64,000 nt of DNA, taken from IMG/VR virus record IMGVR_UViG_3300045988_139474, positions 88,908-152,907 of that record; one strand, 5' to 3'. The DNA comes from a virus. The notes beneath the pieces were generated by a model, which searched no databases, was not told the origin of the DNA, and was given only the letters and a program-made list of their open reading frames with translations. A program made the translations under genes and the position numbers. This document shows positions 5,895 through 61,812 of the stretch, piece by piece. The number at the start of each line of letters is the position of its first letter. Within the stretch, counting starts at the first letter, position 1.

Positions 5895-6046
5895 AGATTA
5901 TAAGATATATAATACCTGAGGTTGATATTGTATCACATCTATGACATTGAAATCGTATATTTCGTGACTAACTTCTTATTTTCGCAAGGGAATTTTTAGC
6001 CAAAATCCTGTATTTATGTACGGAATCCCAATAGTTACAAGATTCA
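5895..6046 (+). repeat. R-element copy 1
   Basis: TATAAT at 5908-5913; anchor TATCACATCTATGA at 5931-5944; V1 ACTAACTTCTTATTTTCGCAAGGG; V2 CAATAGTTACA. Confidence 0.9.
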
Positions 6047-6284
6047 GCATTCAGCTTCTGTATCCCTGTCAACAGATTTCACCAGTGTTGATTGATTTCG
6101 CCTTTTAGCTTTCTATCCTCTGCTTGACACTCACCCAGACGGTCGGATTTCAGTCAGTCATTACTCATGCTTCAGCAGGGTTGAGTAGGATTCATGATTG
6201 TTACCCCTTCTTCTGCTGACTCAGGCTACAGGCCGTCTAGTTTCATTGCTTCAGCAGTGTTGATAAAGACTGATTCTGTTCCAT

Positions 6285-6316
6285 CTCTAGCTTGCTACGC
6301 TCACACGCAAGCAGAG
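6285..6316 (+). repeat. CA-loop hairpin (H-box) copy
   Basis: CTCT-A-GCTTGC / loop TACGCTCACAC / GCAAGC-AGAG: 10 bp with a 1-nt bulge. Confidence 0.75.
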
Positions 6317-6444
6317 GGTTTCTTATCTCATGTTTCAGCATCATGATTCTCAAATTTCACGATTTCATTCTCATGGCTGATTGAGGATTGAGAGTGAATG
6401 ACTGATTCCTGTTCAACAGCAGATATTAAGTCGGTATCGTTTTC

Positions 6445-6600
6445 TAATTTAATATATATATATATATAACCTGTAGTTTGTTATTGTATCACATCTATGA
6501 CATTGAAATCGTTTATTTCGTGGATAACTTCCTAATCCGCCAAAAGAATTTTTAGCCAAAATCCTGTATTTATGTTCCGATTCCTGTACCCGCCAAGACC
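6445..6600 (+). repeat. R-element copy 2
   Basis: Anchor at 6487-6500. The -10-like box is replaced by (AT)8 at 6452-6467. V1 GATAACTTCCTAATCCGCCAAAAG; V2 TGTACCCGCCAAG. Confidence 0.9.
6452..6467. repeat. (AT)8 dinucleotide microsatellite
   Basis: Read directly. It occupies the position where other copies have ATTAGTNATATAAT. Confidence 0.9.
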
Positions 6601-6826
6601 AGCATAAAAATATCGAAAAATCTTTCCCAATGTTGACTGCCTAAAGACGGTATCCCCTCTGTAAGCGCGGCAAGGCCAATTAACGTAATTTTTTGGTAAC
6701 ACCCTAATATCTATTGATGTATCGCCCTACACGATTTCGCAGAGCGTCGCTGCTAAGTCGTTGATTCTTCACGGGAATGATACAAATGGCCGTCAGTATC
6801 GGCACTATTTACAGGAAGAACTGAAA

Positions 6827-7276
6827 ATGACCAATCAGGTAATAAGTCTAAATTCCAGTTCATTGCCAGCTACCTTGTCTGATATCGACAAGCATTTTGA
6901 TATCGACCAGCTTCAGGTACACCGTATTGCAGCACAGCTGTTGTTGACTAAATTAGCCAACAGGGAAGCTGTACGGCTCGAAAAGCTCGTCAATTTCAGA
7001 GATGCTATTGAAGAGCAGCTATTTGATGAAGACCGCATCGACAAGTTGACTCAGGAAGAGTTGATTGCTTTGCACCAGTTGATATCAAGTAGTGAGAGTC
7101 AGGCATACGGCCAAATTCAGAAAGTTAGCAAAGATGTGAACCTCGAAGAAGTGAAAGTCCATATCAAGATTCTGTCACAGTCAATGAACGATTCCGATAA
7201 TCCAAACCTAGTGGACAACTCAGAAGCCGCAGCTGTAGCACAACGATTGCTGTCGCAAGTGGAAAGTAAGAAGTAG
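6827..7276 (+). CDS. hypothetical protein (small terminase candidate by position only)
   Basis: In-frame ATG at 6827 with RBS AGGAAG. The ORF-track start at 6761 is TTG without an RBS. 149 aa, helical, acidic. Lies upstream of TerL. Confidence 0.45.
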   Translation: MTNQVISLNSSSLPATLSDIDKHFDIDQLQVHRIAAQLLLTKLANREAVRLEKLVNFRDAIEEQLFDEDRIDKLTQEELIALHQLISSSESQAYGQIQKVSKDVNLEEVKVHIKILSQSMNDSDNPNLVDNSEAAAVAQRLLSQVESKK

Positions 7277-7292
7277 TCCAGAAAGAAACATC

Positions 7293-7523
7293 ATGACCCC
7301 GATTAAAAGACAAGCGTGTAATTTGACTGTTGGAAAAGCCGTAACCCTGCCTTCAGGCCGCAGGGCTATCGTGCTTGAGATTCAGACAGAAAGCATTTCA
7401 TTCTGCTATGCTGATGAGGCTGAGCTGTTCTCATTTGAGCTATCCCGAAACAAGTGCATTGAACTGTTCGGCAATACCCCCGAATATCGTGACTACTGGA
7501 CGCCAGCCAATCAAAGAATCTAG
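7293..7523 (+). CDS. hypothetical protein
   Basis: 76-aa ORF packed between neighbours on the operon strand. Confidence 0.5.
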   Translation: MTPIKRQACNLTVGKAVTLPSGRRAIVLEIQTESISFCYADEAELFSFELSRNKCIELFGNTPEYRDYWTPANQRI

Positions 7524-7540
7524 GCCGAAAGGACTGACTC

Positions 7541-9343
7541 ATGAGCCAATCAAGCGAGATTGTAGCATTAGATAACAAGGTGCTATTTGAGATTGCCAAG
7601 AAAGCAGGCTTTAAAGAGGAAGTCCCAACGATTGAGCAATTTATTGATGACCCTTACTATCTTGGCAAAGTGTTGGGTGACGGATTGTATCCTATTTGGC
7701 GAGAAGCAGCCAAGAAGCTGTACCCCAACCCTTACCATTCACCATATGATGAAGTCATTCTATCGGGTGCTATCGGTTTGGGTAAATCGACTATGGCACT
7801 GCTCATCACTTTCTATGACCTTTGCCGAGTCATGTGCTTGGAAGACCCGCATAAGCATTATGACCTAATTTCCTCAACAGTCATCACATTCCCAATGATG
7901 AATGCAACCAAGTCCCTTGCGTCGAAGGTGCTCTGGTCGCAATTCGTGGATTGGGTAGAAGCAAGCCCATTCTTCAAACACCGTGTTGATACCCGCAAGG
8001 GTGCTAAGACCTTCTTCAAAGGCAACATTGATGTTTCGACAGGCTCACGCGGCAGTGACTACTTAGGTCAAGCAACCATCGGTGCAATCTTTTCGGAGAT
8101 TAACGACATGACGGTTGTAGCTGGCCAAGCAGAGGACAACCTTGACACAATCTCCACTCGTAGGGATTCCCGATTTGGCGGTAAAGGTAAGGAAATTCTA
8201 GGACACATCATCCTTGATTCCTCTAACAAGGGCAATCGCTCATTCATTGATGCGCGCCTTGAGGAAAAGGAAAAGAAAGGCTCAACAGGACATATCGTCT
8301 TCAGCTTCTCACACTGGGAAGCAAAATGGCACTTGGGAGGATACTCAGGCAAATTCTTCCAAGTGTACGCAGGCGATGAGTTTATTGACCCTTTCATCAT
8401 TGATGATTCCAATTCCGACATGCTTCCAAACTTGAAGCCTAATCGTATTGTCGATGTCCCTGTTGAGCATAGGGAACAGTTTGAATTCAACATCATCAAA
8501 TCATTACGTGACTTGGCTGGTGTTTCAACTTTCGGCACGGCTTCCTTTATCTCATCCAATGAGGTTCTCAATCGCACGTTCATTCGGCCTAATCCTGTTA
8601 CCAAGGATTTGATAGTGCTAGACTTCTTCAACGACCAGTCATTGCGGGATTACATCGACATCGGGTTGTTGAAGGCGTTATGCGACAAGCCCCGATTCAT
8701 CCATATTGACTTAGGCTTGACTACTGACTCAACAGGTATTGCTTGCTCATACATTGACAGGTACGAAGAGGTGAAAGCTTATGACCCTGTCAAGGGCACT
8801 CAGACGGTAGTTGTTGAGCCAGTATTCGTCAATGAATGGCTGATGGAGATACGGAGCATACCAGGACAGGAAGTCCCAATCCACAAAATCAAGAAATTCA
8901 TTCTTGATGCAAGGGCTGAGGGCTATCCAATTGCTTGCGTTTCAACAGACGGCTTCCAATCAACCAACCTGCGGCAGGATTTACTGTATGCTGGTTTTGA
9001 AGTGAAGCTGATTTCAGTTGACCGAACCAAAGACCCTTACTATCATTTGCGCTCAGCGATTCTCGAAGGCCATGCAACAGCTGTCGCCTCAGAAAAGCTC
9101 AAGCGTGAAATCAGGGAATTGGAAGAGCATGATGACAAGTTTGACCACCCACCACCTCCAGCAGGCTCGAAAGACTTGTCTGACGCATTATGCGGTTCAA
9201 TCTGGTCAGCCAAAGAGAACATGCAGCTAGCAGACAAGACGAAAGTGACCAAGCAACAGGCTGATACATTGCTCAAAGTGTTGGAAAAATCCGCTCCGAA
9301 AGAACAGGCATTCAAAGCTAAATTGATGGGCGGTTACAATTAG
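7541..9343 (+). CDS. terL: terminase large subunit
   Basis: 600 aa. Walker A GAIGLGKST. The C-terminal half has RNaseH-like nuclease acidic motifs (VSTDGFQS, DLSDALCGSIW). Confidence 0.8.
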   Translation: MSQSSEIVALDNKVLFEIAKKAGFKEEVPTIEQFIDDPYYLGKVLGDGLYPIWREAAKKLYPNPYHSPYDEVILSGAIGLGKSTMALLITFYDLCRVMCLEDPHKHYDLISSTVITFPMMNATKSLASKVLWSQFVDWVEASPFFKHRVDTRKGAKTFFKGNIDVSTGSRGSDYLGQATIGAIFSEINDMTVVAGQAEDNLDTISTRRDSRFGGKGKEILGHIILDSSNKGNRSFIDARLEEKEKKGSTGHIVFSFSHWEAKWHLGGYSGKFFQVYAGDEFIDPFIIDDSNSDMLPNLKPNRIVDVPVEHREQFEFNIIKSLRDLAGVSTFGTASFISSNEVLNRTFIRPNPVTKDLIVLDFFNDQSLRDYIDIGLLKALCDKPRFIHIDLGLTTDSTGIACSYIDRYEEVKAYDPVKGTQTVVVEPVFVNEWLMEIRSIPGQEVPIHKIKKFILDARAEGYPIACVSTDGFQSTNLRQDLLYAGFEVKLISVDRTKDPYYHLRSAILEGHATAVASEKLKREIRELEEHDDKFDHPPPPAGSKDLSDALCGSIWSAKENMQLADKTKVTKQQADTLLKVLEKSAPKEQAFKAKLMGGYN

Positions 9344-9644
9344 CTCAAAATCAGCTACCTCACCAATTTCAGGTCAGGTATTGCTTGTTGAGAACAGGGC
9401 GTTATCAGCTGGAATTTACCATCGCTGGGGGATATACCAGCGAGTTATTTCAGTCATCAGAATCCTTGTTTTTGATTGATTTTAAGATTTCAGTCTCATG
9501 GCTGTTAAATCCCTTGTTTTCAGTCTTCAGGCCTCCTGATTTCTTGATTCTTGCTTTCGGGATTCTATCCTGACTGCTTGATTCTTCTCTTCGGGATTCC
9601 GTGAGGGCTGTTTTCAAGGATTCCAGTTTCATGGATTGTTAGTT

Positions 9645-9803
9645 TTCTTTATTTAATATATAGTATAACTTGTGTTGTGTATATTGTATCACATCTATGA
9701 CATTGGAATTGGATATTTCGTGGATAAGTTATTATTTTCGCAAGGGAATTTTTAGCCAAAATCTTGGACTTATGTTCGAGATTCTGTCTAGGCCAGGATT
9801 CAG
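9645..9803 (+). repeat. R-element copy 3
   Basis: Anchor at 9687-9700; TATAAC box about 9664-9669; V1 GATAAGTTATTATTTTCGCAAGGG; V2 TGTCTAGGCCAGG. Confidence 0.9.
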
Positions 9804-9879
9804 ATTTCAACTCTTGTATCGCAGCCTCAAGTTTCATCAGTCAATGATTGATTTCAGGCTTCCAGCAGTCTGTTTTCAA

Positions 9880-9913
9880 CTCTAGCTTGCTCACACTCAC
9901 AACGCAAGCAGAC
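9880..9913 (+). repeat. CA-loop hairpin (H-box) copy
   Basis: CTCT-A-GCTTGC / loop TCACACTCACAAC / GCAAGC-AGAC. Confidence 0.75.
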
Positions 9914-10044
9914 GGTTTCTTGTTTTGATTTCAGGCTTCAGGCCGTCTGATTTCAAGGATTCCATGCTCATGGCTGATCGATAAGGATGAATGACTGCTC
10001 TCAAGTCTCAGGATTGATAGAAATGAAAGCAGGGTTGTTCTTTT

Positions 10045-10206
10045 TCGTCTATTAGTAATACTCTTGTGTGGTGTGTATATTGTGTATCACATCTATGAGT
10101 TTGGAATTGGCTATTTCGCGGATAAGCTTCTGATTCTCCAGCACTATTTTTCGCCAAAATCCTGTCTTTATGTTCGGAATCCTGTTCCCTACAAGATTCA
10201 TCTTCC
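10045..10206 (+). repeat. R-element copy 4
   Basis: Anchor at 10085-10098. Terminal hairpin 10177-10199 (GAATCCTGT / TCCCT / ACAAGATTC). Ends 32 nt before the portal start codon. Confidence 0.9.
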
Positions 10207-10237
10207 ATTAACCTGACATCTGCAAGGAATAAGCCCT

Positions 10238-11929
10238 ATGCACTTCAATGCCCGTGTGGACTCAGATGTAAGCGGCATCTTGTCCGCTACTATGAACAGC
10301 ATTATCAATCCCAAAGGCCATCTTGTGCATAACTTCAGCGTGCAGGATACTAGGGCTGCAAGGGATTTGAACTCAAAGCTGACTGCGTTTGCTACTACTC
10401 GCATTCAGTATTACAAGACACTCCGTCAATTCCGCCGTAATTGGGTGACTGAAGGCGTGTATGATACTATCAATAATGACGTGCTGTTGGATAACACCTC
10501 AGACGATACTGTTTCAGTCGAAGTAATAGGCGATGATGCCTTGACTCAAGAGGCCAATGACCTGTTTCGCAAACTGAAGATAGTTGAAATCTTACACTCC
10601 ATCATTGATGACCTGCTTCATTACGGTTCATACGCCCTCCGACCGATTGCCTACAAGGGTGTTGGTGTGGTTGACTTGGTTGACGATTATGAACCGCATC
10701 AAGTCATTGCTTTGACCGATAGCAAAAACAATCCAGTCATGTTCTTCATCTCAGATGATTATTTGTCTAGCGATTTCAGTCAAGCTGATGCTGCTGGTAC
10801 TTATGCTTATGTACCTCAGAGCAAGAAGCCTGTATCTCAGCGTTATCACTCAATTGATGAGTTGGTTTATTTCGGCCTTGACTTGAGCTTCACCAAAATC
10901 CATATCGAAGAGGATTGGACACAAGCTATCCGCCAAGCTGCCCCGTTGTCGGCTTTCCGCGCTACTCTGCCGAAAACCTTTAAGCTGCGTGCCAGCCGTT
11001 CCTTTATCTTCAACAATCTCGACAAGCTTCAGGACATCTTGCTGATGGACAAGCTTAACACCTACCGCTCCATTGGCGACACGTTGACTCCTAACGTGTT
11101 GGGTGTTCCGTTGCCGGACAACTATGACTCGCAACAATCTACTGAAGTGACTAAACACTATGATGCTCTGTTGAATAACAACATCGACCAAATGACCGAC
11201 TTCCTTGACCCTGAAACAATGTTCAGGGAATTAGCGAGAATTCGTGTTGTCCCGATAGTGGGTGACCGCTCGCAACCCGTCAAGTTAGAAACAAAAGAAA
11301 ATGAGAGAGTTGAAGACATCGAATCGAAGAATCAGGCCTTGCGCAATTTCCTAGATTCGATAGGCGTGCCTGCAGCCGTCTTTTTCGGCGAAGGCGAGCA
11401 TAAGGAAAGCTTGAAAAACTCAATCCGTTACGCCAAAAAAGTCAAGAGAATTCAGAAGAATATTTCACGCGCATTAACTCGCTTATTGATTATCCACTTT
11501 CAAAACCGTTATCCTGAGCTTTCGGGTAAACTGAATGAGGGTGATATCAGAGTTACACTGCGCAACAATACCAACCTTGATGAGCTTGAAGACTTGGAGT
11601 CACAAGACTTGACGCTATCCTCTATCAATTCAGCATTGGAGATGTTTGAAACTATCCGACCGCTGACGGAAGGTGAGGACAGCGAGTATAAGATTGACGA
11701 CAACATGATTCTGCAAGTAATCAAAGATAGGCTGGGCACCTCAGGCTCGATATTTGCACGCGCTTTGACTAAGCTCGAAGATGAGTCAATCACGCTTGAG
11801 ACTTCTGAAATCTCACCATCGAAGGATACACCTGGTGCAAACTATAAAGCAATTAAGAGGGCTATTGGAATCTCAGAAGGTCAGAAGCCTCCGAGAAAGC
11901 GGTGGTTCAGTCGCTTGTTTAACTCGTAG
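10238..11929 (+). CDS. putative portal protein
   Basis: 563 aa. First large gene after TerL and before the protease/scaffold and capsid genes, with RBS AAGGAA. Call rests on synteny and size only. Confidence 0.5.
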   Translation: MHFNARVDSDVSGILSATMNSIINPKGHLVHNFSVQDTRAARDLNSKLTAFATTRIQYYKTLRQFRRNWVTEGVYDTINNDVLLDNTSDDTVSVEVIGDDALTQEANDLFRKLKIVEILHSIIDDLLHYGSYALRPIAYKGVGVVDLVDDYEPHQVIALTDSKNNPVMFFISDDYLSSDFSQADAAGTYAYVPQSKKPVSQRYHSIDELVYFGLDLSFTKIHIEEDWTQAIRQAAPLSAFRATLPKTFKLRASRSFIFNNLDKLQDILLMDKLNTYRSIGDTLTPNVLGVPLPDNYDSQQSTEVTKHYDALLNNNIDQMTDFLDPETMFRELARIRVVPIVGDRSQPVKLETKENERVEDIESKNQALRNFLDSIGVPAAVFFGEGEHKESLKNSIRYAKKVKRIQKNISRALTRLLIIHFQNRYPELSGKLNEGDIRVTLRNNTNLDELEDLESQDLTLSSINSALEMFETIRPLTEGEDSEYKIDDNMILQVIKDRLGTSGSIFARALTKLEDESITLETSEISPSKDTPGANYKAIKRAIGISEGQKPPRKRWFSRLFNS

Positions 11930-15183: not shown

Positions 15184-15225
15184 AGCCGTCTGGACGAAGC
15201 CTCAAAAACTCCGTTCAGACGGCCT
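15184..15225 (+). terminator. hairpin built from an inverted pair of DUS-like sequences
   Basis: GCCGTCTGGACG ... CGTTCAGACGGC forms a 12-bp stem (one G-U pair). The right arm is an exact AG-DUS. The downstream T-tract is weak. Confidence 0.55.
15214..15225 (-). repeat. DNA uptake sequence, AG-DUS 12-mer AGGCCGTCTGAA
   Basis: Exact match read on the minus strand. Confidence 0.9.
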
Positions 15226-15253
15226 AACTTAAAACTTGTGGGAGAGTGTAAAC

Positions 15254-15771: not shown

Positions 15772-18700
15772 ATGGCCAAGCAACTGAACAACCTTGAAAA
15801 TGCGTTGCTTTCTATTGCCCGAAAGACTAAAGCAGCCAAAGATGTCGCTGCTGAAGCTAAAGAGTTAGCAGCACCTGCCAATATTGCAACCGCAGTCAAC
15901 GGTGCGCTGTCTGAAGTAGAAACAGCAGCCAAGATTGCGGCTTTACAAGCTGCGCATACAGCTGGTATGAAACTTGCTGTTGAGCGTGGCGTGTATTATC
16001 TCGAAGATGCGTTGACTGGCGATTTGCGCGAAAAAGTCTTGTCAGGCTATTTCAAAGACAACAAACAAACTCCTGACGAAGCAGCTGTAATCAGCCGTGC
16101 AATTACCGAGTTTATTGAACGCATCCCCAACGGCTCGTATATTACAGCCCGTCAAGGCTCAGTATTCAGTGTCGATAAGAACAAAGGCTACAAGCCTGAA
16201 GTTTTCGGCGCAGACGGTCGTGTCGTTAGTGTCGGCGGAATGAAGTTGACTATTGACGGCGCACAGCCTTGTATCTATATCCGAAATAAATCCAACTGTT
16301 ACTTTGATTTTCGTGGCGTTACATTCATCGTTGAGTCTTTTGGCGTCAACGTGTTTGAAATGGACGGTGGCGAAGGTAACATCATTACACACGGCGGTAT
16401 CATCCGATCACGCCGATACCTTGAGAAAGGCTATGTCGGCGGTCGTCAAGGCCTGTTTGCGCCTATCGATGGCTGGACTCCAGAAAATCCAGACATCGGT
16501 TACGGCTATGCCGACAAGGGCTTGTACGATTTAGGCTTTAACACCACAACATTGATGCATGACTTGGCTCGCTATCGTAACAATGCTGCTCAAGTACAGA
16601 ACGTCAAGAAACCTGTTGATTTGACTTGGGCTCAAGTCAAAGAATATGAACGTCAACAAAGCGTCAGAAAATATCTGAGTGTCGGTGGCTATTGGAATGA
16701 AGACGGTACCAAAAACCAATTCCCACAAGAAGATGGTACAGTGTCTGAAGAGTGGGGTACATGGGCTGGCGGCCAACGCGGTTCATCTGCTTGCGGTTGG
16801 GTATTCTATGATGTCCATCATCTGGTCGTCTGGGATTTTGATATCCGTGGCATGACTAGCTCCGCATTGCAATTTGGCTTGTATTCTACTCGTGACTGTC
16901 GCGCAGTAGATGGTGGCGACATCGCAACGGCTATCCGAGAGAAAATGGTTTGCTATGACTGCAAAGTCTATGGCGGATTCATGGATGCTAACTATATTGG
17001 CGGCATCGGTGTTGTACGCGGTGTTGGTATTACGATTGAGGGCATGAATTGTATCGAAGGTCGTGTTGGTCACCCTGACGCTTCTTTAGGACACTCACGC
17101 GACAATAGCCAAGTAACTGTTGACCCAGGCTATTGGCTATGGACTAGTCGTTATCTGCCTCAAATTGGTATCCGTTTCCTGAATAACCATTTCGGCTTCG
17201 CAGCACGCAAAGTTTGTGATGCTCATACTGGTAATAACATCCAAATTATCGGTAACAGTGGTTCGTGCTTGTACTATGGTACAGGCGTGGTGATTGAAGA
17301 ATCCTTTGCAATGGACGCAACCAAAGGCGGTCGGGCAGAGGACACCAGCTTCAAATACCAAGAGTCAAACATCGTCATCAAGGATAATGAGTTTGAATGC
17401 GGTTTGAACGGTATCTTCCTGATTAATGGCGCAACAGGCGTAAAAGCCCGCAGAGACAAGAAACTCTGGTGGCTGCGCGCAAACGTTACAGTTGAGAACA
17501 ACCGTATTTATGCCCCACGCGGTATGCCTTGTAACTTCGGTCATAACCGATTTACAATTCAAGGCAACAGTTGTACCTTCGCATTGCCTTTTGGCGAGCC
17601 TTTCGGCTTACGCTATCTGAGCGCAATCAATATCAAGAAGGGTGGTCAAAACTACAGCCCTGATACCAAGCTTGTTATTACAGGCGGTGGCGAAGGCGCA
17701 CGCGGTGCAGCTGCTACTTGTACTGTTACCAACGGCGTGATTACAGCAGTTAGAATTACCGCAACAGGCACGAAGTATGCTGACGCAAGCTCCATTTCTG
17801 TTCAAGCTGTTGACCCGACAGGTCAAGGCTCAGGCGCAGAGTTTGAAGCGTTCTGTAACTCTTCTTCTTACGCCTACATGATTGGGGCAGAGGCTCGCTA
17901 TGGTACCATTGACGCTTCTTACATCGTCAACAACATGGCTCGCAACTCACAATACGGTAACTATGACCGCATGTTCTTGTCTGCTAACCTGACAGGCTGT
18001 ACTGTACGCGATAACCGACTGGACACCACACCTTACACTAAAGGTGCTAATCCAGCCCTGCCGTACACTTCTGACCGCGATTACGTTCACCGCTCAGGCG
18101 TTGCTAGTCAAGGCTTCTACCAAACTGGTACTCACACTGACTGCTTCCATGAAAACAACAAAACATGGGATCAACGGTCAGGCGCGTGGACTGACTTTGT
18201 TTTCCGCAACGTAACGACTGCTAACGGTACAGCTGAAGCCAATGCCAAAGTATCCAAGACTGATATTCAAGCCTTGATTGATTCAGCCGTCGCAGCTGCT
18301 ATCTCTAAATTGAATATCGGCAAGGCCGAAACAGCTAAACCAGCTGACCCTAAACCTGCCGATGCTCCAAAAGCGAATGAAGGCGGTCAGCCTGCTTCAC
18401 CTCAACCAACTACTGAAACTCAACCGCCTGCTGCGTCTAGCGAGCCTCCGAAAGCCGCAGAGACTACAGCAGAAGCTTCTCCAGCACCAGCGTCACCTCC
18501 AACTGAGGCTGCTACTACAGCTGAAACGTCTATCAAGTTTACATTTGACGGGCTGGAAGCTAAGGCACCTGAAGCGATTGGTAGCAACGGTACAGCCAAG
18601 CTGAAATCCGTGAATAACGCTATCCGCGCAGGTGAACCAGAAGGCTGGGCAGGAGCATTCGGCGAAGTTGATGGTCATAAGACTATGCGCGCATTAGTAG

Positions 18701-19164
18701 CTGGCGAAGGCAAGGGCATCCGATACATTGAATCAGAAGGCTTGACTTCAGATGGTTCTGCTGCTTCTGCGTTGATTGTTCCGTTCAAGCAAGTTGCTGG
18801 TGGAGCTAACGGTGCTGGCTTCTCTGTAATTCATCAGAAAGGCCGTAGCATTATTGGTAATGGCTTGATCACTACCAACGAAGCAGACGGATTCAAACTG
18901 CGATTTGCAGAGGGTACAACCATTAACGGTAAGCCAATCTCAGCAACCAAAGTCTATCCTTACGACACATGGCACGTTGCTATGATTCCTGTACCTGCTG
19001 GCGCAGACAAAGCCTTCGACATGATCAGATTTGGTATGAACCATGCTGGTAACGTAGGCCGTAACATCATTATCGGTGCAGGCACTGAATTTGTACAAGG
19101 CGACATCAGCAAAGTTGGCGATAAAGTCGCTGCTTTGATGACTGAGTACAATATCAGCAACTAA
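15772..19164 (+). CDS. 1130-aa beta-helix (pectate-lyase-fold-like) protein in the head module, possible capsid fibre or depolymerase
   Basis: Repeated parallel beta-helix type turns (NNHFGF..., IQIIGNSGS, IVIKDNEFECGLNGIFLINGATG, VENNRIYAPRG, TIQGNSCTF). Also a GGxNYSPDTKLVITGGGEGARGAAA repeat, a PT/A-rich linker near 18330-18520, and a C-terminal globular domain. Confidence 0.5.
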   Translation: MAKQLNNLENALLSIARKTKAAKDVAAEAKELAAPANIATAVNGALSEVETAAKIAALQAAHTAGMKLAVERGVYYLEDALTGDLREKVLSGYFKDNKQTPDEAAVISRAITEFIERIPNGSYITARQGSVFSVDKNKGYKPEVFGADGRVVSVGGMKLTIDGAQPCIYIRNKSNCYFDFRGVTFIVESFGVNVFEMDGGEGNIITHGGIIRSRRYLEKGYVGGRQGLFAPIDGWTPENPDIGYGYADKGLYDLGFNTTTLMHDLARYRNNAAQVQNVKKPVDLTWAQVKEYERQQSVRKYLSVGGYWNEDGTKNQFPQEDGTVSEEWGTWAGGQRGSSACGWVFYDVHHLVVWDFDIRGMTSSALQFGLYSTRDCRAVDGGDIATAIREKMVCYDCKVYGGFMDANYIGGIGVVRGVGITIEGMNCIEGRVGHPDASLGHSRDNSQVTVDPGYWLWTSRYLPQIGIRFLNNHFGFAARKVCDAHTGNNIQIIGNSGSCLYYGTGVVIEESFAMDATKGGRAEDTSFKYQESNIVIKDNEFECGLNGIFLINGATGVKARRDKKLWWLRANVTVENNRIYAPRGMPCNFGHNRFTIQGNSCTFALPFGEPFGLRYLSAINIKKGGQNYSPDTKLVITGGGEGARGAAATCTVTNGVITAVRITATGTKYADASSISVQAVDPTGQGSGAEFEAFCNSSSYAYMIGAEARYGTIDASYIVNNMARNSQYGNYDRMFLSANLTGCTVRDNRLDTTPYTKGANPALPYTSDRDYVHRSGVASQGFYQTGTHTDCFHENNKTWDQRSGAWTDFVFRNVTTANGTAEANAKVSKTDIQALIDSAVAAAISKLNIGKAETAKPADPKPADAPKANEGGQPASPQPTTETQPPAASSEPPKAAETTAEASPAPASPPTEAATTAETSIKFTFDGLEAKAPEAIGSNGTAKLKSVNNAIRAGEPEGWAGAFGEVDGHKTMRALVAGEGKGIRYIESEGLTSDGSAASALIVPFKQVAGGANGAGFSVIHQKGRSIIGNGLITTNEADGFKLRFAEGTTINGKPISATKVYPYDTWHVAMIPVPAGADKAFDMIRFGMNHAGNVGRNIIIGAGTEFVQGDISKVGDKVAALMTEYNISN

Positions 19165-25299: not shown

Positions 25300-25707
25300 A
25301 TGTATAACCTGTTAATTCCATTACATGTAATAGTGTCACGGATTCCTGAGGGCTTAGCAGACAAGACCTTATCTGAAGATGATGACTGGTTTTTCAGTTA
25401 CATGTCTCAGACAGAGGGTAACGAAGATTTGCTTGACACTCTAGATGTTCTTGTACGGCTCGAAAAGATACACATCAAGACTTTGACCCGCAAGAAGTTC
25501 ATCTCCATCTGGTTCAATGAGTATCCGCGTTCATTCATCGCTGATATTCTGACCACTAGTGATAACCCTCAATCAGTCATTGCTAAACGGTTGAACGATA
25601 CCGATGAGCTGTTACAAGTCTATCAGTTAACAGGCGATGAGATGGCTGAAGAGTATAACCTGCATTCAGCATACTCAATCAAGACGAAGAAGTGTTACAG
25701 ATTCTAA
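25300..25707 (+). CDS. hypothetical protein
   Basis: ATG at 25300 with RBS GAAGGA. The ORF-track start at 25246 lies inside the terminator hairpin. 135 aa. Confidence 0.5.
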   Translation: MYNLLIPLHVIVSRIPEGLADKTLSEDDDWFFSYMSQTEGNEDLLDTLDVLVRLEKIHIKTLTRKKFISIWFNEYPRSFIADILTTSDNPQSVIAKRLNDTDELLQVYQLTGDEMAEEYNLHSAYSIKTKKCYRF

Positions 25708-25860: not shown

Positions 25861-25878
25861 ACCAACGAACGGAAGCAT

Positions 25879-40900: not shown

Positions 40901-40924
40901 CGGCTCGCTTCCTCTTTGATTCGA

Positions 40925-50200: not shown

Positions 50201-51740
50201 GGCTTTGAAAAGCGAGGTTAGAACTAGCTTCAGCCTGATTAGCCAAGTCATTGGTACTGACCGCTGTACGTCAGAAGCTATTGATGGTCGTAAGAATCCT
50301 GACCAAGTTGCGGCTGTATGCTCAGGCTTGTTGAAAGACGGCGTTTACTCGTTCATTTCAGCACCTACAAACAACAGTCAAACCAGCTTAGTTGATATTG
50401 CGGAAGCTGAGGCCAATAAAAAGGCTAATGCAGCCAAAAAGGCTATTGAGGATACCTGGAGTCCTACAATCAATGAAGCTTTGACTAAAGCCAAAAAGGG
50501 TGTTGAGGAAGCTGATAAAGCCAATAAAGCAATACCTGAGAAGCTGAAAGAGGCTAAGGACTATGCTGATGATCAAAGAATAGAGGCAATCAAGAAAGCT
50601 GGTGAAGCAGCAGGCGAAAAGATTAAGCAAGCCAAAACTGATGTTAAAAATGACTTAGCACCTGTAATCAATCAAGCCAAGACTGACGCGATTACAGAAG
50701 CCCGACAATCTGTAGTATTCACAACTGCTCAAGACCTAAACAGTCTGGCTAATTCGGGTAGTTATGTAATCAAAGCAGCCAATAATCCGAATGCCCCGAT
50801 AACTAACTGGTTATTTGTTACAGTTGAGGGTGACGGTCGTGACCGCATTTTACAGACCGTGACTCGAGACAACGACAGTACAGTCCGTTACACTCGCAGA
50901 AAGGTTGGCGGTACATGGTCAGATTGGGCTAAAGAGGTCAGTGCTGATGACGTTCAACAGTCAATTTCAGCTTTGAAGATACCGAATGTGTTGTATGCTC
51001 AAGGGGCTTACAATAACAGCTATGCTCAGATGAAAGTATCAACTCCTTCTGGAATCCGCAATCTACCGATTGCAGATAACATAGGTATTGCGGTACAGAT
51101 TCTGAACATTTCAACGCTGGGTGTTGAGTTTGCTAAAGTCTATCCTGCTAATGCTACCAGCTATGCTCAGTTGGCTGCTGATTTAAGTAAGACCGCCTAC
51201 AACGGCAAGATAGTCATGATTGTATCTAGGGCTAATGTCGGTAGAGTGGACGATACCAACCTGAGGTCAGCTTTGCGTAGAGCAGGTTCAACAGACCTGA
51301 TTTACAACACGCTGAACAAGCGAGGCAACAATACATTTGCTTTGATTGGTAAGATTGGTTCAGAAGGCTCAGCCCAAGAATCTATCATGGCTGTTGGAGG
51401 TTCAGGTGGTGTCTTTGGCGATTTCGCTCAGGTTTCTGCAGTTTGGAACAACGGCGATTTAATGCCAGGCAGTCAGACACTGATTGACGGCGGTAGGATT
51501 ACAACCAATTCTATCACTGCTAATCAAATTAGTGTTGGTAGCTTGTCCGCAATATCAGCTAACTTAGGTCATGTTACTGCAGGCTCAATTAACATTGGTG
51601 GTAAGTTTAGAGTTGATAGCAATGGTGAAGTAACGATTAGTTCAGGCGGTTCTACTGGCTTGAAGATTACTAACCAACGCATTGACGTGTATGATGAAAA
51701 TGCTAGATTACGCGTCCGATTAGGCAAACTGGTTGATTAA
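41277..51740 (+). CDS. giant (3487 aa) modular tail fibre / adhesin
   Basis: ATG at 41277 with RBS AGGAG. Long coiled coils alternate with jelly-roll-like modules, each starting GGRNL and ending (K/E)xExGxxxTDWTPAPED (44328-44720, 45579-46083, 46356-46769, 47469-48077). Two pyocin-knob-like domains, two ILEI/FAM3-like domains, and a C-terminal fibre-tip-like repeat ITANQISVGSLSA. Confidence 0.75.
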   Translation: MVKPCIQEQSVLRYSDTASHDKAGMVPLATRWGEVPEDQYAVTAASLLMLENTVSKVEALVADAVDLAAQAGEKAAKAAVKATNTLTDGSSTYSQLNGETGMNITGLTYIPGLSRIELRWALPTYERAAETVIYQATTEAFENAVVIKKVEYPISGAFIDETKARYYWVQLVDKQDPSRRGQVFGPILADPYGNLDKLVETLRGKITATELDAELVQGLYKNIQEATDRTINERLASIRERLNNLDNLVDSRVQNSLQGLNQVTDALEQEIRRLGSNYSKVVENTEKAQGLLETWTSKTEEALAGVQKNTLALTDANTALSQTRETLLAKVGANEAAINKESEARTTQYESIADDIKQLRTKTEANEAAIVEEGRLRSDQFGSQAETLKGLQATSSTQAGRIRELSQTVADNERSSATKFENLKSGLMGNHHYNYNFTAGKDSWEASQGVLEAKTSNNPSDPSNTLLNLKTNVTTLVYSTTKTAINLENVYNAVASLRNIGANPVKVRVGLMTFDHRGEAQTHSNVDSRYYWVSEKTLAPNSGWASLGGEAKGATKQWPINSDLKLAAIPLGAKQGVPVVEIVGERGSEVDIGSIDLLDISATAAVGSEISTLKETTTTALDTQAKEFKKLSSKFGENISEIEKQQKTFSSAQKAQAEQINNMTAKVGANEAGLQRLDEAVTSDRSSTALALDNLKAGFNSTMVNHVKNPSMSKDSTGWTANPTAKFKRVPSTSLLPKGKTEADVPYYTLFKSEGYVGKFWGTDLLIDCDIPKLVSPTDLVHFSVKVANPATTNLTQIKVRINGAQTILLGEVAKGKFEIVSGSVPLPANTTSLQLQISTQNSAITEENAIIIAFPQCRTNAAPIESDAKLEHLRLAVANADQALAREVNNLQVNYKAAAAAIKEEKETRASETEALSLKYQTMESELNGSKAKIQKLETTVTTETESVAKRVREMGTEFNGKISTVTEVAQRGVDNAAEALQKANDNLGLAKRYADDKSLKAITDAEKAVRDKLKLGGRNLIRKSNPDTNDSQYLHAFAITEAPAFGDDVTVTLWGDLGEGRTDFAVYNSRGFGELAKLKKISDGVYQAQFKWADNTYTGPEDKLSNTTLNVYAYPSSSTSAFSINKVKFERGTVPTDWTPAPEDVEDKVDKVKVEIERQVKEAKDLAVSSNAKIKEHETSINNAEKALNQKAVELTGQFNQALTEKVEVLNNAVAKKASGEEVKALLGKVTAVEREVIESKSKINQFSETLDNAQQSSTQIVQDAESRFKKVVEKSVETINRDIGTVRQAAADAASKADQNLQAAQNYADGKKNEALDAAKTYADGQKTAAIQAASADATKKANAAKKAAEDALNPAIQAAQRKADEGVSNAQQAVQAAERNLQAAKEYADGKTAEAKKQAIKDAEEQLKQAKEFLQGKIAEAKTLYDNLEFGGRNLLRKTKGLTDTKFWKFYKDARQTVAEQPRTDDVLTIKTGSAFWASYRQTSVDNPLIALEANKTYTVSFEAKSSNTLDRSIRLFVREYFGDSNDNRFSYYFTPLVADDWVKHSYTFTVDELKANHKAWHVIWELTAPDTQLEIRNMKVERGNKPTDWTPAPEDVEGQIADVKQKAENIGNDMERALEQVKGQLETRIQEAEKKATDAESKVNNYTKTKDTEVSAMAESVRGLEGKFVEEAEKVRATVTTAINDIQIGGRNLAKDSYNPNKDKHGYLKAYRITKAPEYGDKVTVTVWGELGDTRNGQIGVYNTFGYGELFKLTKIADGVWRGQGFWNKHTSPIAGGQERQNETLNLYAYPNDNTDRNLVNNLFTHVKFELGNKATDWTPAPEDLESKIEDITTWKISAQSALEQVQRTVNSAQGSAATLNDALSARFNEAKTQTRREVREELNPEIAKAKKAGVDAAGAVKTELTPKITDAKDQADKGVAEAKKANDAIPQKLKEAKDYADTKKTEAITAAVTEARDWKAVNARTDLNTLKETGRFFIKATANPNAPINNWLYVTVDKGTDSRITQKIQADNDPNIRYYRYFNGSSWTDWVKEANLSDVNAVDGKVTETNKRIDNLRVSGRNLLAATRKLTAFYKGVNVWHYAKHPDERQERLEPISSGDGYEYLDADKQPANTSTNYVQLISRVAGRWVNWHQYSREGSRAARDDSSPTLAKVQSGRWYTLSCEVRKTATSPNTRLQLNLREYYTTSGFKDNGGWVDVNSTEWQQVHVTVFVEYGRGILGHDYWLAYFELYDVGEVHIRKPMLVEANIPADWSEAPEDLERTEIEFSADLQEFKSTLADNRKSLARQMTQLEAGLGISANLIADSEFVEGLSEQAFTEDSNTTGYVRGIVAVDNGRSPKNFLPNKAVRDINVGYVGRLNEANDSNCYFGTYNVPIIPGIYQYSIYVRNDAKVTADVYANFLDENRSQLAQPESKYWKDDFGPRTIQPAPAKPAGQQLTLGDFTRVVFNIDTTHMTNLHYTRIVVRLNSVPANKVGENVVLFCRPQIVKIKKLELADVVEYTPGPSRTSAKALFTEERQARTTETDSLVKQITKGSAKFPNGTGDINQVSVVMNQIMTATANKVTADLTKKYQLDIGGDNLVENSDFKAYENIQSYPNSTSRNKTATIYQYMYPNAGTMTPLIIPDVGLNGSNALRVSWTEFPEFQNKGLQIVFSKKTWARGQFYILAVAARLPAGVTTRGCRVRLDVSNAPFWQDVEYLNQPELTNDWQWTICKARKTQEDNLNQLFISVNGANSPSLRSVEFCLPYASQGSTWGGYKPPTISAVLTETKEIALDAQGKVNAKIGMTVDAGGRVIGWEAQNRNGSTEFNVLADKFRVLNSLNQGGSPFTIENGEVVFKGKVRFSNVQDPPAIPKVPITITAVGVSNHLDVAKRVALLTTDTRDLHRSSNGRGVWLSVINNQTGTLISNVLYDTYTAAGCTAFANAVNSLNRGSNLVIVRSQDASMADNQDFIRALNSLAAGFGNNVNKALKSEVRTSFSLISQVIGTDRCTSEAIDGRKNPDQVAAVCSGLLKDGVYSFISAPTNNSQTSLVDIAEAEANKKANAAKKAIEDTWSPTINEALTKAKKGVEEADKANKAIPEKLKEAKDYADDQRIEAIKKAGEAAGEKIKQAKTDVKNDLAPVINQAKTDAITEARQSVVFTTAQDLNSLANSGSYVIKAANNPNAPITNWLFVTVEGDGRDRILQTVTRDNDSTVRYTRRKVGGTWSDWAKEVSADDVQQSISALKIPNVLYAQGAYNNSYAQMKVSTPSGIRNLPIADNIGIAVQILNISTLGVEFAKVYPANATSYAQLAADLSKTAYNGKIVMIVSRANVGRVDDTNLRSALRRAGSTDLIYNTLNKRGNNTFALIGKIGSEGSAQESIMAVGGSGGVFGDFAQVSAVWNNGDLMPGSQTLIDGGRITTNSITANQISVGSLSAISANLGHVTAGSINIGGKFRVDSNGEVTISSGGSTGLKITNQRIDVYDENARLRVRLGKLVD
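48362..48373 (+). repeat. DNA uptake sequence, AG-DUS 12-mer (inside giant gene)
   Basis: Exact match. Confidence 0.9.
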
Positions 51741-58980: not shown

Positions 58981-59807
58981 TAAATCGTGAGATTTTGGAA
59001 GTATTTGATAATTGCGAAGGCACTAAGAATCCGCTCAAGACTCAATCAGTACTGCTAGAAAGCAAGACGGCTAAGGCTAAAGAGTCATTGGCTGAAGTGA
59101 CTGCGCTGTTATTCCCTGCTGAAAGTAGCGATTCGCCCAGACGGCCTCAAGCCTCTGCTCAGGCTTCCTCTTCCGATTCTTCTGCTAACTTGTCGCCGAA
59201 ACAGAAGCTCATCAATGAATTCTTGAAAGGTACAGGCCTTGCTAAACAGCATTTAAGCCGTATCAAGCAGGCTACCAACAAAATCAGCCATGCTACAGGC
59301 TTGATTAAGAATTATTCGATTGAGAATCTGGCGGACATTCCAACCAAGTTTTCCGTAGTCGGTCAATACATGGCTGATAGGGGGCATGATTGTAATATCG
59401 TCAATTCAGTCTTTGGGGTAATGATGGGCGGAGGCAAAGCCTTGCTAGAATCCTTAGGGATTGAGACGCAGTTCATTACCGACTTATCAAGCAAGCTCAA
59501 CGGCTTCGTTGAGTTAGCTAAGAGGGGTGCGGAATACGTCAATGGTGCTATTGAAAGGTTCAATGCACTGGTTGGGGATGTTGAGTCTTTCATTAACAAT
59601 CTTGAAAGCAGGATAACCAATCTTGAGCAGCTGATTAAAAGTACGATTCAGGCTGAAATAGACAAGCTGAAAGAATTGATGATACGCAATCTCAATGCTA
59701 TGTGGGCTAGGAATTTGCCTGGTTGGTTGAAGAATGATTGTTTCAAGTCAGTCTTGTCTAATGCTTTGTCAGATAAAGTCGGTCGGTTGACTGAGGAACT
59801 GCTATAA
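58977..59807 (+). CDS. hypothetical protein (last gene of the rightward block)
   Basis: 276 aa, helical, with an S-rich linker. Confidence 0.55.
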   Translation: MINREILEVFDNCEGTKNPLKTQSVLLESKTAKAKESLAEVTALLFPAESSDSPRRPQASAQASSSDSSANLSPKQKLINEFLKGTGLAKQHLSRIKQATNKISHATGLIKNYSIENLADIPTKFSVVGQYMADRGHDCNIVNSVFGVMMGGGKALLESLGIETQFITDLSSKLNGFVELAKRGAEYVNGAIERFNALVGDVESFINNLESRITNLEQLIKSTIQAEIDKLKELMIRNLNAMWARNLPGWLKNDCFKSVLSNALSDKVGRLTEELL

Positions 59808-59850
59808 CAACAATTCAACATAATGCTAGGCATACAGCTGTCTAGCCTCT

Positions 59851-59889
59851 GCCCCTTTAGCCGTGATTGGTTGAAGGGGCTTTTTTATT
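59851..59889 (+). terminator. rho-independent terminator
   Basis: GCCCCTT / 16-nt loop / AAGGGGC, followed by TTTTTTATT. Confidence 0.8.
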
Positions 59890-60062
59890 GCGACTAAAAT
59901 TCTGGCGATTTTAGCTGGGTGCAGAGGGTTGAATGGTAAATGATTTGGTCAGCGAGTAGAAATTGGCTACCGCGTTGAAATAGACAGCAAACTTTCGATT
60001 CTAGCGTGATTGGGGAGGGTTCAGCAGTCAAGTATCGGATTTTCACTCCTGTTGGGTCAGGG

Positions 60063-60074
60063 TTCAGACGGCCT
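60063..60074 (-). repeat. DNA uptake sequence, AG-DUS 12-mer (inside repeat module)
   Basis: Exact match on the minus strand. Confidence 0.9.
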
Positions 60075-60140
60075 AAGCTAAGATTTCATACTTCAGCAGG
60101 GTTGAGTAAGATTTCAAGTCATCAGGCTTGTTTTGATACT

Positions 60141-60166
60141 TGACTGGCCCATCACACAGCCAGTCA
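60141..60166 (+). repeat. CA-loop hairpin (H-box) copy
   Basis: Stem TGACTGGC/GCCAGTCA (a completely different stem sequence), loop CCATCACACA. Confidence 0.7.
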
Positions 60167-60254
60167 GACGGTTGATTGACTTCAGCAGTATCATGTTTTT
60201 CACTCTCATGGCTGATTGATGATTGAGAGATTACAGTTAGTGTTTGTTTATCAA

Positions 60255-60412
60255 TTTATTAGTAATATAATATTTGTGTGTGTGTGATATTGTATCACAT
60301 CTATGACATTGAAATCGTTTATTTCGTTGGTAAGCAATTGTTTCAGCAGAAGAATTTTTAGCCAAAATCTTGGACTTATGTACGGAATCTTGTAGGGAAC
60401 AGGGTTCATCTT
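60255..60412 (+). repeat. R-element copy 8
   Basis: TATAAT at 60266-60271; (TG)6 at 60275-60286; anchor at 60293-60306. Terminal hairpin 60385-60407 (GAATCTTGT / AGGGA / ACAGGGTTC). Confidence 0.9.
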
Positions 60413-60563
60413 TCAAGTCTCAACAGTCAGTAGCAAGTTTCATCACTCAATGTTGGGTGATGTCTCCTCGATTCCTGTTGTTGCTTGAGCAGGGGTTCAG
60501 ACGGTCGGATTTCTAGGTTGCTGCTACAGCAGGGTTGAGTAAGGATGAATGAGTGTTTTCATC

Positions 60564-60595
60564 TCTTGCCTGCTACATTCACACCAGCAGGCAGA
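60564..60595 (+). repeat. CA-loop hairpin (H-box) copy
   Basis: Stem TGCCTGCT/AGCAGGCA, loop ACATTCACACC. Confidence 0.75.
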
Positions 60596-60663
60596 CGGAG
60601 GAATCCTTGAAGCTGAGATTTCACTCTCATGGCTGTTTGAGGGAGGAATCAGGGCTGTTAGAA

Positions 60664-60828
60664 TTTATTATAGTTATTAATAATCTGTGATTATATATTG
60701 TATCACATCTATGACATTGAAATCGTATATTTCGTGGATAAGTTTCTAATAAATCAGGGGAATTTTTAGACAAAATCTTGGACTTATGTACGGAATCCTG
60801 TACCCGCCAAGCTTCATCTCTCAATCGT
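60664..60828 (+). repeat. R-element copy 9
   Basis: Anchor at 60701-60714; V1 GATAAGTTTCTAATAAATCAGGGG; V2 TGTACCCGCCAAG. Confidence 0.9.
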
Positions 60829-60982
60829 CAACAATCAGCCTCAAGTTTCACTAGTCAGCAATTGAATTTGCTTTTCAGCTTTCGGTCGGTGCATGAATGC
60901 TGCTAATCAGTATTGATATTAATGATTTTCAGCACTCAATCGTCATTCGGTCGGAGGGTGTCCCAACACGGTTGAGATTCAA

Positions 60983-61013
60983 TTCTTGCCTGCCACTCAT
61001 CAGTCAGGCAGAA
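60983..61013 (+). repeat. CA-loop hairpin (H-box) copy
   Basis: TTCT-T-GCCTG / loop CCACTCATCAGT / CAGGC-AGAA. Confidence 0.65.
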
Positions 61014-61182
61014 CAGTCTCATGCTTCAGCAAGCTTGAGGGAGGATTCACCCTTCAGGGCTGATTGCTAAGATTTCATGCTTCAGCAGTCTCAAATTCTT
61101 GTTTTCCAGTCTCATGGCTGTTCTCAAGTCTCATGGCTGTTGGGGATTGAGAGTGAGGGACTGATTCATGACTGTTAGAAGT

Positions 61183-61340
61183 TTATTAGTTATATAATAC
61201 CTGTTGTTTGTTATTGTATCACATCTATGACATTGAAATCGTATATTTCGTGACTAACTCGTTATAAAATCAGGGAAATTTTTAGCCAAAATCCTGGACT
61301 TATGTTCGGAATCCCAATAGTTACAGGATTCATTCCTCAA
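61183..61340 (+). repeat. R-element copy 10
   Basis: TATAAT at about 61193-61198; anchor at 61217-61230; V1 ACTAACTCGTTATAAAATCAGGGA; V2 CAATAGTTACA. Confidence 0.9.
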
Positions 61341-61448
61341 CCATTGCTGTTCAGTCTCAAGTTTCACCAGTCAGCAATTGGTTTCATGATTCCGTCTCAA
61401 TCACACCCTCAGGCCGTCTGATTCCATTCTCATGCATGACTGTCCCTC

Positions 61449-61482
61449 TTCTTGCTTGCTCACACTCACACCGCAAGCAGAA
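61449..61482 (+). repeat. CA-loop hairpin (H-box) copy
   Basis: TTCT-T-GCTTGC / loop TCACACTCACACC / GCAAGC-AGAA. Confidence 0.75.
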
Positions 61483-61659
61483 CATTTCATGCTTCAATTT
61501 CGTTGCCTCAGCAATCTCATGCTTGACTGTTTCCGTTTCTTAGGCCGTCTATTCTTCTGATTGATGATTCTCAGTCTCATGTTTCAAGGATTCCATGCTC
61601 ATGGCTGTTGTTTCTCAAGTCTCAGTCTCAATGGTGTGTTAAATGTTTGTTGATTCTTC

Positions 61660-61812
61660 TATTAGTTATTATATACTTGTGTTGTGTATTTGTATCACAT
61701 CTATGACATTGGAATCGTATATTTCGCGGATAAGTTATTGTTTCTCAATCGCTATTTTTAGACAAAATCCTGTCTTTATGTACGGAATCCCAATCGTTAC
61801 AAGAAGCAATCA
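61660..61812 (+). repeat. R-element copy 11 (3' hairpin degenerate)
   Basis: Anchor at 61693-61706; V1 GATAAGTTATTGTTTCTCAATCGCT; V2 CAATCGTTACA. Confidence 0.85.

Follow-up and report, generated by a model that had tools for sequence, protein, structure and literature searches.

A multi-copy intergenic element with an invariant core in the genome of a Neisseria myovirus

What holds a short non-coding sequence constant at many places in one phage genome? The question is raised by R, an element of ~155 bp that recurs between the genes of a 64,000-nt stretch of viral DNA (IMG/VR record IMGVR_UViG_3300045988_139474, positions 88,908 to 152,907; hereafter the window) and that had been proposed in an initial annotation made from the letters alone. 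We found R to be real, conserved in primary sequence and, for most copies, accompanied by a conserved hairpin. From these sequence comparisons we suggest, at somewhat below an even chance, that R is the conserved core of a recombining promoter cassette and that the invariant core within it is a predicted protein recognition site.

A multi-copy non-coding element conserved in primary sequence

A repeat search recovered an R family of 115-163 nt with 9-10 copies on the plus strand and paired a minus-strand copy at 33553-33706 with the others, giving 11 copies in the window, 10 on the plus and one on the minus strand (Table 1). The core pattern TATCACATCTATGANNTTGRAAT, searched with up to two mismatches allowed, matched exactly 11 times, each time without a mismatch and at the sites first annotated, and did not match at all in 100 dinucleotide-preserving shuffles of the window. 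All 11 copies lie between genes, as had been claimed, and R is confirmed as a genuine multi-copy non-coding intergenic element. Read 5' to 3', copy 1 consists of an AT-rich box (AT box), a GT-rich spacer, the invariant core, a variable cassette (V1), a second block (block 2) and a second variable cassette (V2). This six-part architecture, proposed at the outset, proved broadly right, except that the AT box, typically TTATTAG...TATAAT, varies both in sequence and in its distance to the core.

The expected conservation in related phages was borne out by 83 copies, 68 of them distinct, drawn from contigs of related phages in IMG/VR and in metagenomes. Sixty columns are invariant in the alignment of the 11 window copies, and TATCACATCTATGA, TTG.AAT, ATTTCG, TTTT...CAAAATC.TG and TTATGT.C are unchanged across the 68 copies and in a 69-sequence alignment that includes the relatives. 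The invariant blocks are 14-20 nt long and strictly fixed in spacing, while the sequence in between is free. Columns 1-118 are indel-free in the 68 copies save for a 1-nt deletion in two of them, and the core through V2 is of fixed length. V1 and V2 diverge by 30-50% even when one orthologous copy is set against another, which upholds the earlier description of cassettes fixed in length and not in sequence. Blocks that are invariant in 68 copies, with near-absent indels and with cassettes that differ by 30-50%, call for purifying selection on the core. Short inversions occur inside R (GGAATCC versus GGATTCC; V2 loop TGTTCCCTACA versus TGTAGGGAACA), and AATCCTG recurs there, twice in direct and once in inverted orientation.

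This conservation is one of primary sequence, not of structure. A structured RNA had been favoured initially, and none of the analyses bore it out. Rfam gave no match at gathering score anywhere in the window, and at E values up to 5 it returned for 59800-62100 and 5100-10300 only chance matches to eukaryotic small nucleolar RNAs and microRNAs, none of them on R. ARAGORN found no transfer RNA (tRNA) or transfer-messenger RNA gene in the window, and the earlier failure to match R to a known RNA family or tRNA was thus confirmed. The folding energies of the individual copies showed no excess over shuffles on either strand (z from -1.5 to +1.4), and the RNAalifold consensus reached -2.3 kcal/mol for the 11 copies and, for 36 copies, 0.0 kcal/mol on the plus and -1.4 kcal/mol on the minus strand. 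Covariation, a check that the initial annotation had asked for, was assessed for three proposed helices on the 68 copies, an alignment that covers one phage clade (relatives with 55% portal identity are without R), and lay at or below the shuffled level: 474-500 of 500 shuffles reached the observed values, and the 19 proposed pairs scored 0.063, against 0.069 in shuffles. GRAAU-N5-AUUUC and AUUUU-N5-AAAAU form 5-bp A/U stems that never vary but for one A/G column opposite an invariant U (35 G-U, 33 A-U); because this is a one-sided change at a single column, the G-U pairing offered as a sign of structure says little. The V2 helix is paired in 59-70% of cells, and the hairpin said to close V2 is present in some copies and not in others, its folds being inconsistent copy by copy.

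The idea that V1 and V2 are exchangeable specificity cassettes fared no better, since for neither does the rest of the window hold complementary targets other than 11-15-mers at the level of chance, and they were rejected as guides on the same ground. Compared with guide-RNA types (CRISPR, omega/reRNA, bridge RNA), R has no scaffold structure and no window targets above chance, and no gene for a Cas protein, TnpB, IscB or a recombinase turned up in the family scans. Pairing of V1 with V2, or of flank with flank, was likewise rejected, as the same left flank is found with both right-flank alleles. R shows that strong conservation, even with variable cassettes of fixed length, does not have to imply a folded RNA.

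Nor does R encode a protein on its own strand. Six-frame translation met stops in every frame, the sense frames stopping early, and a leader peptide from the conserved ATGs is ruled out by the stops in all frames together with the lack of a ribosome-binding site.

Table 1. Positions of R copies, S hairpins and DNA uptake sequences in the window (HMM, hidden Markov model)
Feature	Position	HMM limits	Strand	Setting
R copy 1	5895-6071	~5899-6071	+	divergent region between leftward replication and rightward packaging genes
R copy 2	6445-6622	~6458-6622	+	~205 nt 5' of first gene of packaging operon, likely start 6827
R copy 3	9645-9831	~9654-9831	+	within 895-bp non-coding insert between large terminase and portal
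R copy 4	10045-10227	~10048-10227	+	ends 11-32 nt 5' of portal start codon 10238
R copy 5	25706-25881	~25714-25881	+	fills entire gap from stop 25707 to start 25879; without S module
R copy 6	33547-33706	~33547-33701	-	antisense between two plus-strand baseplate genes
R copy 7	41035-41210	~41040-41210	+	5' of giant tail-fibre gene, likely start 41277
R copy 8	60255-60437	~60255-60437	+	first in four-copy tandem array
R copy 9	60664-60845	~60664-60845	+	array; extended -10-like TGTTAGAAT immediately 5' of AT box
R copy 10	61182-61361	~61182-61361	+	array
R copy 11	61658-61837	~61658-61837	+	array end; 3' end ..CAAGAAGCAATCATTGC.. unlike the others, similar to copy 6
S hairpin	5730-5768		+	5' of copy 1
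S hairpin	6284-6321		+	5' of copy 2
S hairpin	9879-9918		+	5' of copy 4
S hairpin	40924-40961		+	5' of copy 7; followed by CTCATGGCTG motif ~40978-40987
S hairpin	60136-60173		+	5' of copy 8; stem GACTGGC/GCCAGTC, fully compensated relative to other copies
S hairpin	60562-60598		+	5' of copy 9
S hairpin	60982-61017		+	5' of copy 10
S hairpin	61449-61486		+	5' of copy 11
AGGCCGTCTGAA	4117-4128		-	
AGGCCGTCTGAA	15212-15223		-	
AGGCCGTCTGAA	19167-19178		+	
AGGCCGTCTGAA	23146-23157		-	
AGGCCGTCTGAA	29715-29726		-	
AGGCCGTCTGAA	48362-48373		+	
AGGCCGTCTGAA	60063-60074		-	

Surroundings, distribution and recombination of R

The spacers between R copies are mosaics of conserved modules, among them a hairpin, S, that consists of CTYTWGCYTGCT, a CA-rich loop and AGCARGCAGA, with a stem of 7-9 bp and a loop of 10-13 nt. 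In the window and its relatives, 64 of 72 S hairpins have an R copy within 200 nt downstream on the same strand, and ~100 nt separate the hairpin from the AT box. The stem occurs as GCCTGC/GCAGGC, GCTTGC/GCAAGC and GACTGGC/GCCAGTC; double changes were seen in four of nine pairs (26 cells), a level of covariation that none of 500 shuffles reached and that was absent from slid controls. The structural signal is therefore carried by the S hairpin, not by R. A further module, the motif YTCATG (often GATTTCANTCTCATGGCTG; also CTCATGGCTG), is found 27 times on the plus strand and never on the minus strand in the non-coding stretches 5174-6760, 9344-10237 and 59890-61990, and about once per 2 kb elsewhere in the window. 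Directly 3' of copy 11 lies a long inverted repeat (~61830-61922; 25-nt arms, 84% complementary, 37-nt spacer), which is also present in a relative (contig L012, 4694-4780) and may be a terminator or a structure closing the array.

Most solitary copies are oriented toward the gene that they precede. Co-oriented copies end 19-227 nt 5' of a ribosome-binding site and start codon, those of the leading genes in the packaging, portal/head, tail and fibre blocks, and these signals lie outside the conserved R at variable distance (19, 32, 77 and 227 nt). Copy 5 stands between tail genes. Copy 7 is preceded by a terminator-like hairpin and an S module; a long ORF (open reading frame) begins inside it at 41163, an ATG that happens to share the frame of the tail-fibre gene, and an AGGAG ribosome-binding site makes 41277 the most likely start. 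The array of copies 8-11 occupies a gene-free region with the convergent late and early gene blocks on either side. In two relatives (L009 and L167), minus-strand copies are found 5' of a minus-strand dUTPase operon. The remaining intergenic gaps of the 53-kb late region contain ribosome-binding sites, hairpins and pairs of DNA uptake sequences, and no other recurring promoter-like repeat was found in them.

Some copies face the other way. Copy 6 touches the stop at 33547 with its 3' end and has its AT box 18 nt before the ATG at 33724, an orientation that is also kept in relatives, and in L167, L168 and L178 three copies are antisense to both flanking genes, beside a DUF4326 gene and a gene of 276 aa. 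In the antisense copies R's 3' end touches the stop codon before it, and its AT box is turned toward the start codon that follows. The antisense copies of these three relatives bracket an early-region two-gene cassette (L167 7394-9716; L168 755-3071; L178 1704-3651) that encodes a 127-aa DUF4326 protein and a protein of 276-290 aa without assigned function.

A hexamer matching TATAAT in at least five of six positions is present within 75 nt 5' of the core in 67 of the 68 copies. A good -35 hexamer is absent in most copies and usable in few; one copy type combines an extended -10, TGTTAGAAT, with a TTGAGG -35. The AT box is near-palindromic and could on that account serve as a -10 in both directions. 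Middle promoters of the T4 MotA-box type (TGCTTCA-N11-TAAGAT) were sought in the spacers and rejected, with three matches against 1.5 expected.

All R copies belong to a single clade of distantly T4-like myoviruses, on contigs that share 70-99% identity with the window. Relatives at 54-56% identity in the portal are syntenic and R-free: no R element was found in ~20 kb of their syntenic DNA, and their terminase and portal genes stand 12 bp apart (L155/L157, 9988-10001). The corresponding gap in the window (9344-10237, 895 bp) is made up wholly of S and R modules, and the block with copies 3 and 4 is an insertion, because the two genes are so close in the R-free relatives. On these comparisons R is best read as a lineage-specific addition. 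Megablast and blastn searches of INPHARED phages gave no match to the window, and a literature search for the core sequence returned nothing. A profile of the spurious antisense ORFs of R, searched against 5.8 billion proteins, gave 13 matches, all in phage metagenome-assembled genomes (MAGs) and none in a bacterial genome; a short (15-mer) DNA scan of bacterial genomes yielded only scattered single chance matches among the matches listed, and none of the listed loci convincingly matched the R HMM. R has no terminal inverted repeats (longest match 4-6 nt, shuffled mean 5-6 nt), and no duplication was seen in the 12 nt on either side of the copies; with neither feature, a passively acquired host MITE (miniature inverted-repeat transposable element) finds no support.

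Comparison of contigs 87-98% identical to the window showed that R copies recombine with each other. The terminase-portal gap holds two copies in the window and in L171 and a single hybrid of copies 3 and 4 in other relatives, and the array comprises 3-5 copies in different contigs. Identical V1 cassettes are found in paralogues that otherwise differ, for example copies 6 and 8 or copies 7 and 9, which indicates short-tract exchange; unequal crossing-over alters the size of the array. Identity to two relatives falls from 90% to 77-78% across copy 7, with no shift at the other copies, and R copies were accordingly rejected as general mosaic breakpoints.

Candidate roles of R

How might such an element act? 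If R belongs to a recombining promoter cassette, the full order would be the S hairpin, ~100 nt, the AT-rich box and the ~118-nt core. The AT-rich box would be a host sigma-70-type promoter independent of a -35 hexamer, and it would start the packaging, head, tail and fibre operons and, in relatives, also the dUTPase operon. A predicted protein would read TATCACATCTATGA..TTGRAAT..ATTTCG and ATTTTTAGCCAAAATCYTG..TTATGTNCGGAATCC linearly at their fixed spacing. It might do so on DNA, where the invariant blocks would form an operator or roadblock comparable to the C1 operators dispersed in phage P1, or on the nascent 5' RNA, with the blocks used in antitermination or mRNA handling; either would bring many operons under joint control. 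What survives of the initial suggestion of a promoter with a structured leader is a promoter plus leader; 'structured' does not, with no fold and no covariation to support it. More tentatively, and in our view rather improbably, the invariant core may be a new cis-acting signal, with ~60 fixed positions in 118 nt and no secondary structure, that a predicted phage protein reads on DNA or nascent RNA to switch a dozen dispersed promoters together. It would then govern globally the choice between lysis and lysogeny or the change from early to late expression, or would be an antitermination signal of a linear kind, with the covarying S hairpin as its partner.

Several observations weigh against a promoter cassette with a protein-read core. 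Copy 6 and the three antisense copies in L167, L168 and L178 are conserved as well as the rest, and six copies (1, 3 and 8-11) have no downstream ORF of convincing length; together these imply that action in cis on a downstream mRNA is not all that the core does. The promoter is read from AT-rich hexamers, of a kind that chance readily produces in sequence like this, and for most copies a consensus promoter scan did not pick out the AT box itself. Scans of the neighbouring small proteins (Pfam, PHROGs, NCBIfam) gave no clear domain for binding DNA or RNA and no candidate binding protein. The conservation of R also shows no 10-11 bp periodicity (permutation test, p = 0.11); an 11.3-bp series had been spotted by eye, and the helical-phase reading built on it failed this test.

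Conservation that is the same whatever the orientation, and whether or not a gene follows, would also suit a platform at the DNA level, apart from transcription start, on which a DNA-binding protein of phage or host origin organises, partitions, replicates or recombines the genome. R copies might be centromere-like sites for a ParM-type actin system, or promoter-plus-unwinding-element (R-loop) origins, of which T4 oriF and oriG are examples. The fixed block spacing with free intervening sequence points the same way, as do the short motifs that recur in R in both orientations, the arrays that fill two large gene-free regions at the borders of early and late blocks, and a ParM/Alp7A-like gene just past the window's right end in L012. 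We nevertheless consider this explanation unlikely, if the most serious of the alternatives: the conservation lacks helical periodicity, no iteron cluster lies near the ParM-like gene, the scans gave no clear DNA-binding domain in neighbouring small proteins, GC skew carries no origin signal at the arrays, and most solitary copies occupy precisely the sites at which operons need promoters.

The recombination between copies raises another prospect, that of a selfish or neutral mosaic repeat, akin to the intergenic mosaic elements of Neisseria or to PeSLs (promoter-early stem-loops, described below), spread by homologous recombination and tolerated for its outward promoter, whose main effect would be module shuffling. 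Changes of copy number by unequal crossing-over and short-tract exchange among paralogues are what such a repeat would produce; R is moreover missing from distant relatives, its terminase-portal block is a non-coding insertion in an otherwise tight junction, copies occur in either orientation, and identity to two relatives drops across copy 7. A neutral repeat is hard to reconcile, however, with the purifying selection that the invariant blocks and near-zero indels require, and terminal inverted repeats, target-site duplications, identity shifts at copies other than 7 and presence/absence polymorphism at solitary sites among the sampled clade members are all lacking. We judge it a quite unlikely account.

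We think it very unlikely that R specifies an autonomous family of non-coding RNAs, made from their own AT-box promoters and acting in trans as decoy, sponge or antisense RNAs, those from the array running through the spacer to the next S hairpin. Behind the array copies come 250-350 nt that hold conserved modules and a compensated hairpin but no credible ORF, the single variable stem position of R is paired only on the plus strand (as A-U or G-U), and the antisense copies could yield antisense RNAs. Against this, R has no conserved structure, covariation or stability beyond shuffles, Rfam is empty and the V cassettes have no window targets; no terminator stands at the 3' end of R (of the two terminator-like sites in 59700-62100, neither follows an R copy), and at the solitary copy 7 the S hairpin is upstream of R, not downstream.

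A family of small antisense-strand protein genes is effectively refuted: one antisense frame, reading ..IPNINTGFWLKI..NVIDVIQ.., is common to all copies, and antisense ORFs of 49-76 aa cover seven of the 11 (copies 3-9), such ORFs being annotated as hypothetical proteins in phage MAGs, but the frame is broken by TAA or TAG within V1 in 7 of 11 copies, as befits the earlier view that a protein gene is unlikely, its ORFs lack a ribosome-binding site, direct reading of the alignments of the 11 copies and of the relatives shows no enrichment of variation at third codon positions, and open copies are no commoner than chance, since the invariant blocks happen to be stop-free.

Several known systems share features with R. 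The C1 operators of phage P1 and the stoperators of cluster A mycobacteriophages are dispersed sites of 13-17 bp. Like R, they place one asymmetric conserved sequence at many promoters or intergenic sites of a phage genome, and they let one protein control many operons, as is proposed for R; unlike them, R has ~60 invariant positions over 118 bp, and no repressor for it was found. The Correia elements and other MITEs of Neisseria are multi-copy, intergenic, promoter-carrying sequences of ~100-155 bp in either orientation. They agree with R in size, copy number, intergenic location and variable orientation, whereas R lacks terminal inverted repeats and target duplication and had no bacterial-genome copy among the 13 matches of the antisense-ORF profile, all from phage MAGs.

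Two further systems are comparable. PeSLs are composite terminator/promoter cassettes of T4-like myoviruses, ~50-70 bp long and ending at the promoter (PMC2839356, PMC4122927). Both PeSLs and R are short conserved non-coding cassettes with many intergenic copies, single and in tandem, in T4-like myoviruses; a PeSL joins a stem-loop to a sigma-70-type promoter, as R would with the S hairpin and its predicted promoter, and in both, recombination between copies deletes, duplicates or swaps the DNA in between, as we found for R. The two have no sequence similarity. In contrast to PeSLs, R has a strictly conserved ~118-nt block 3' of the promoter-like box, its S hairpin lies ~100 nt 5' of the box and not next to it, a conserved -35 is lacking, and R flanks structural (late) operons, whereas PeSLs are concentrated in variable early regions. 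The REP2/CREN repeats of Neisseria meningitidis are described as intergenic sequences of 120-150 bp, interpreted as a promoter and 5' untranslated region for common control (PMC3184786, citing Parkhill 2000 and Morelle 2003). They share with R the genus, many copies, intergenic sites directly 5' of genes and the absence of terminal inverted repeats. REP2 includes the ribosome-binding site, the ATG and two predicted stem-loops, whereas R stops 19-227 nt short of the start codon and has no stem-loop with support, and REP2 is chromosomal whereas R was found only in phage contigs. R, with its predicted promoter, resembles PeSLs in architecture and recombination and REP2 in size, position and absence of terminal repeats; from both it differs in the long invariant block 3' of its promoter-like box.

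The phage, its host and implications

The window belongs to a myovirus genome with 45% GC. PHROGs and Pfam identified a DnaB-like helicase, a second helicase and RusA on the minus strand at the left end, and on the plus strand a T4 gp20-like portal, prohead protease, gp23-like capsid, tail sheath, baseplate hub and wedge, a 3525-aa tail fibre and an endolysin; a 600-aa putative large terminase is encoded upstream of the portal. Seven exact copies of AGGCCGTCTGAA, the AG-type Neisseria DNA uptake sequence, occur in the 64 kb, against ~0.01 expected, and point to Neisseria as the host group. Immediately behind the major capsid gene (~15184-15227), an exact and a degenerate uptake sequence are paired in inverted orientation, an arrangement that resembles the uptake-sequence terminators of Neisseria.

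The tail-fibre gene (41163-51740, likely start 41277) contains internal repeats of 84-103 nt with a ..TDWTPAPED.. motif (44657-46789 and 45373-50590) and is the segment that diverges most among relatives, at 77-79% identity. A 1075-aa tail-module protein (27257-30484) has a VgrG3-like C-terminal domain of the type VI secretion spike (Pfam E = 8e-30), and a 1130-aa gene (15772-19164) has no counterpart in the nearest R-free relatives. The ParM/Alp7A-like actin gene just past the window's right end (Pfam ALP_N, MreB-like_C) lies at 2012-2962 in L012, which is ~89% identical, and adjoins a NAD-dependent ligase gene; judging from these genes, the phage may be kept as a plasmid or actively position its DNA. 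An AsiA-like anti-sigma protein of 71 aa (L012 3047-3262) was considered and rejected: its Pfam match (E = 0.02) is sub-threshold, it has only one homologue, BLASTP against T4 AsiA gave 32% identity over 38 aa, and PDB and PHROGs lent no support. Such a protein, if true, would suit phage promoters without a -35.

To our knowledge, almost nothing is known of gene control in tailed phages of Neisseria, and we know of no lytic phage of the pathogenic Neisseria species in use. If the R core does switch many dispersed promoters together, this would be the first network of gene regulation to be reported for phages of commensal Neisseria. A cassette that stands before most operons would give an experimental handle on the timing of phage gene expression, and it would offer a portable promoter module for Neisseria genetics as well as a bait for the regulator.

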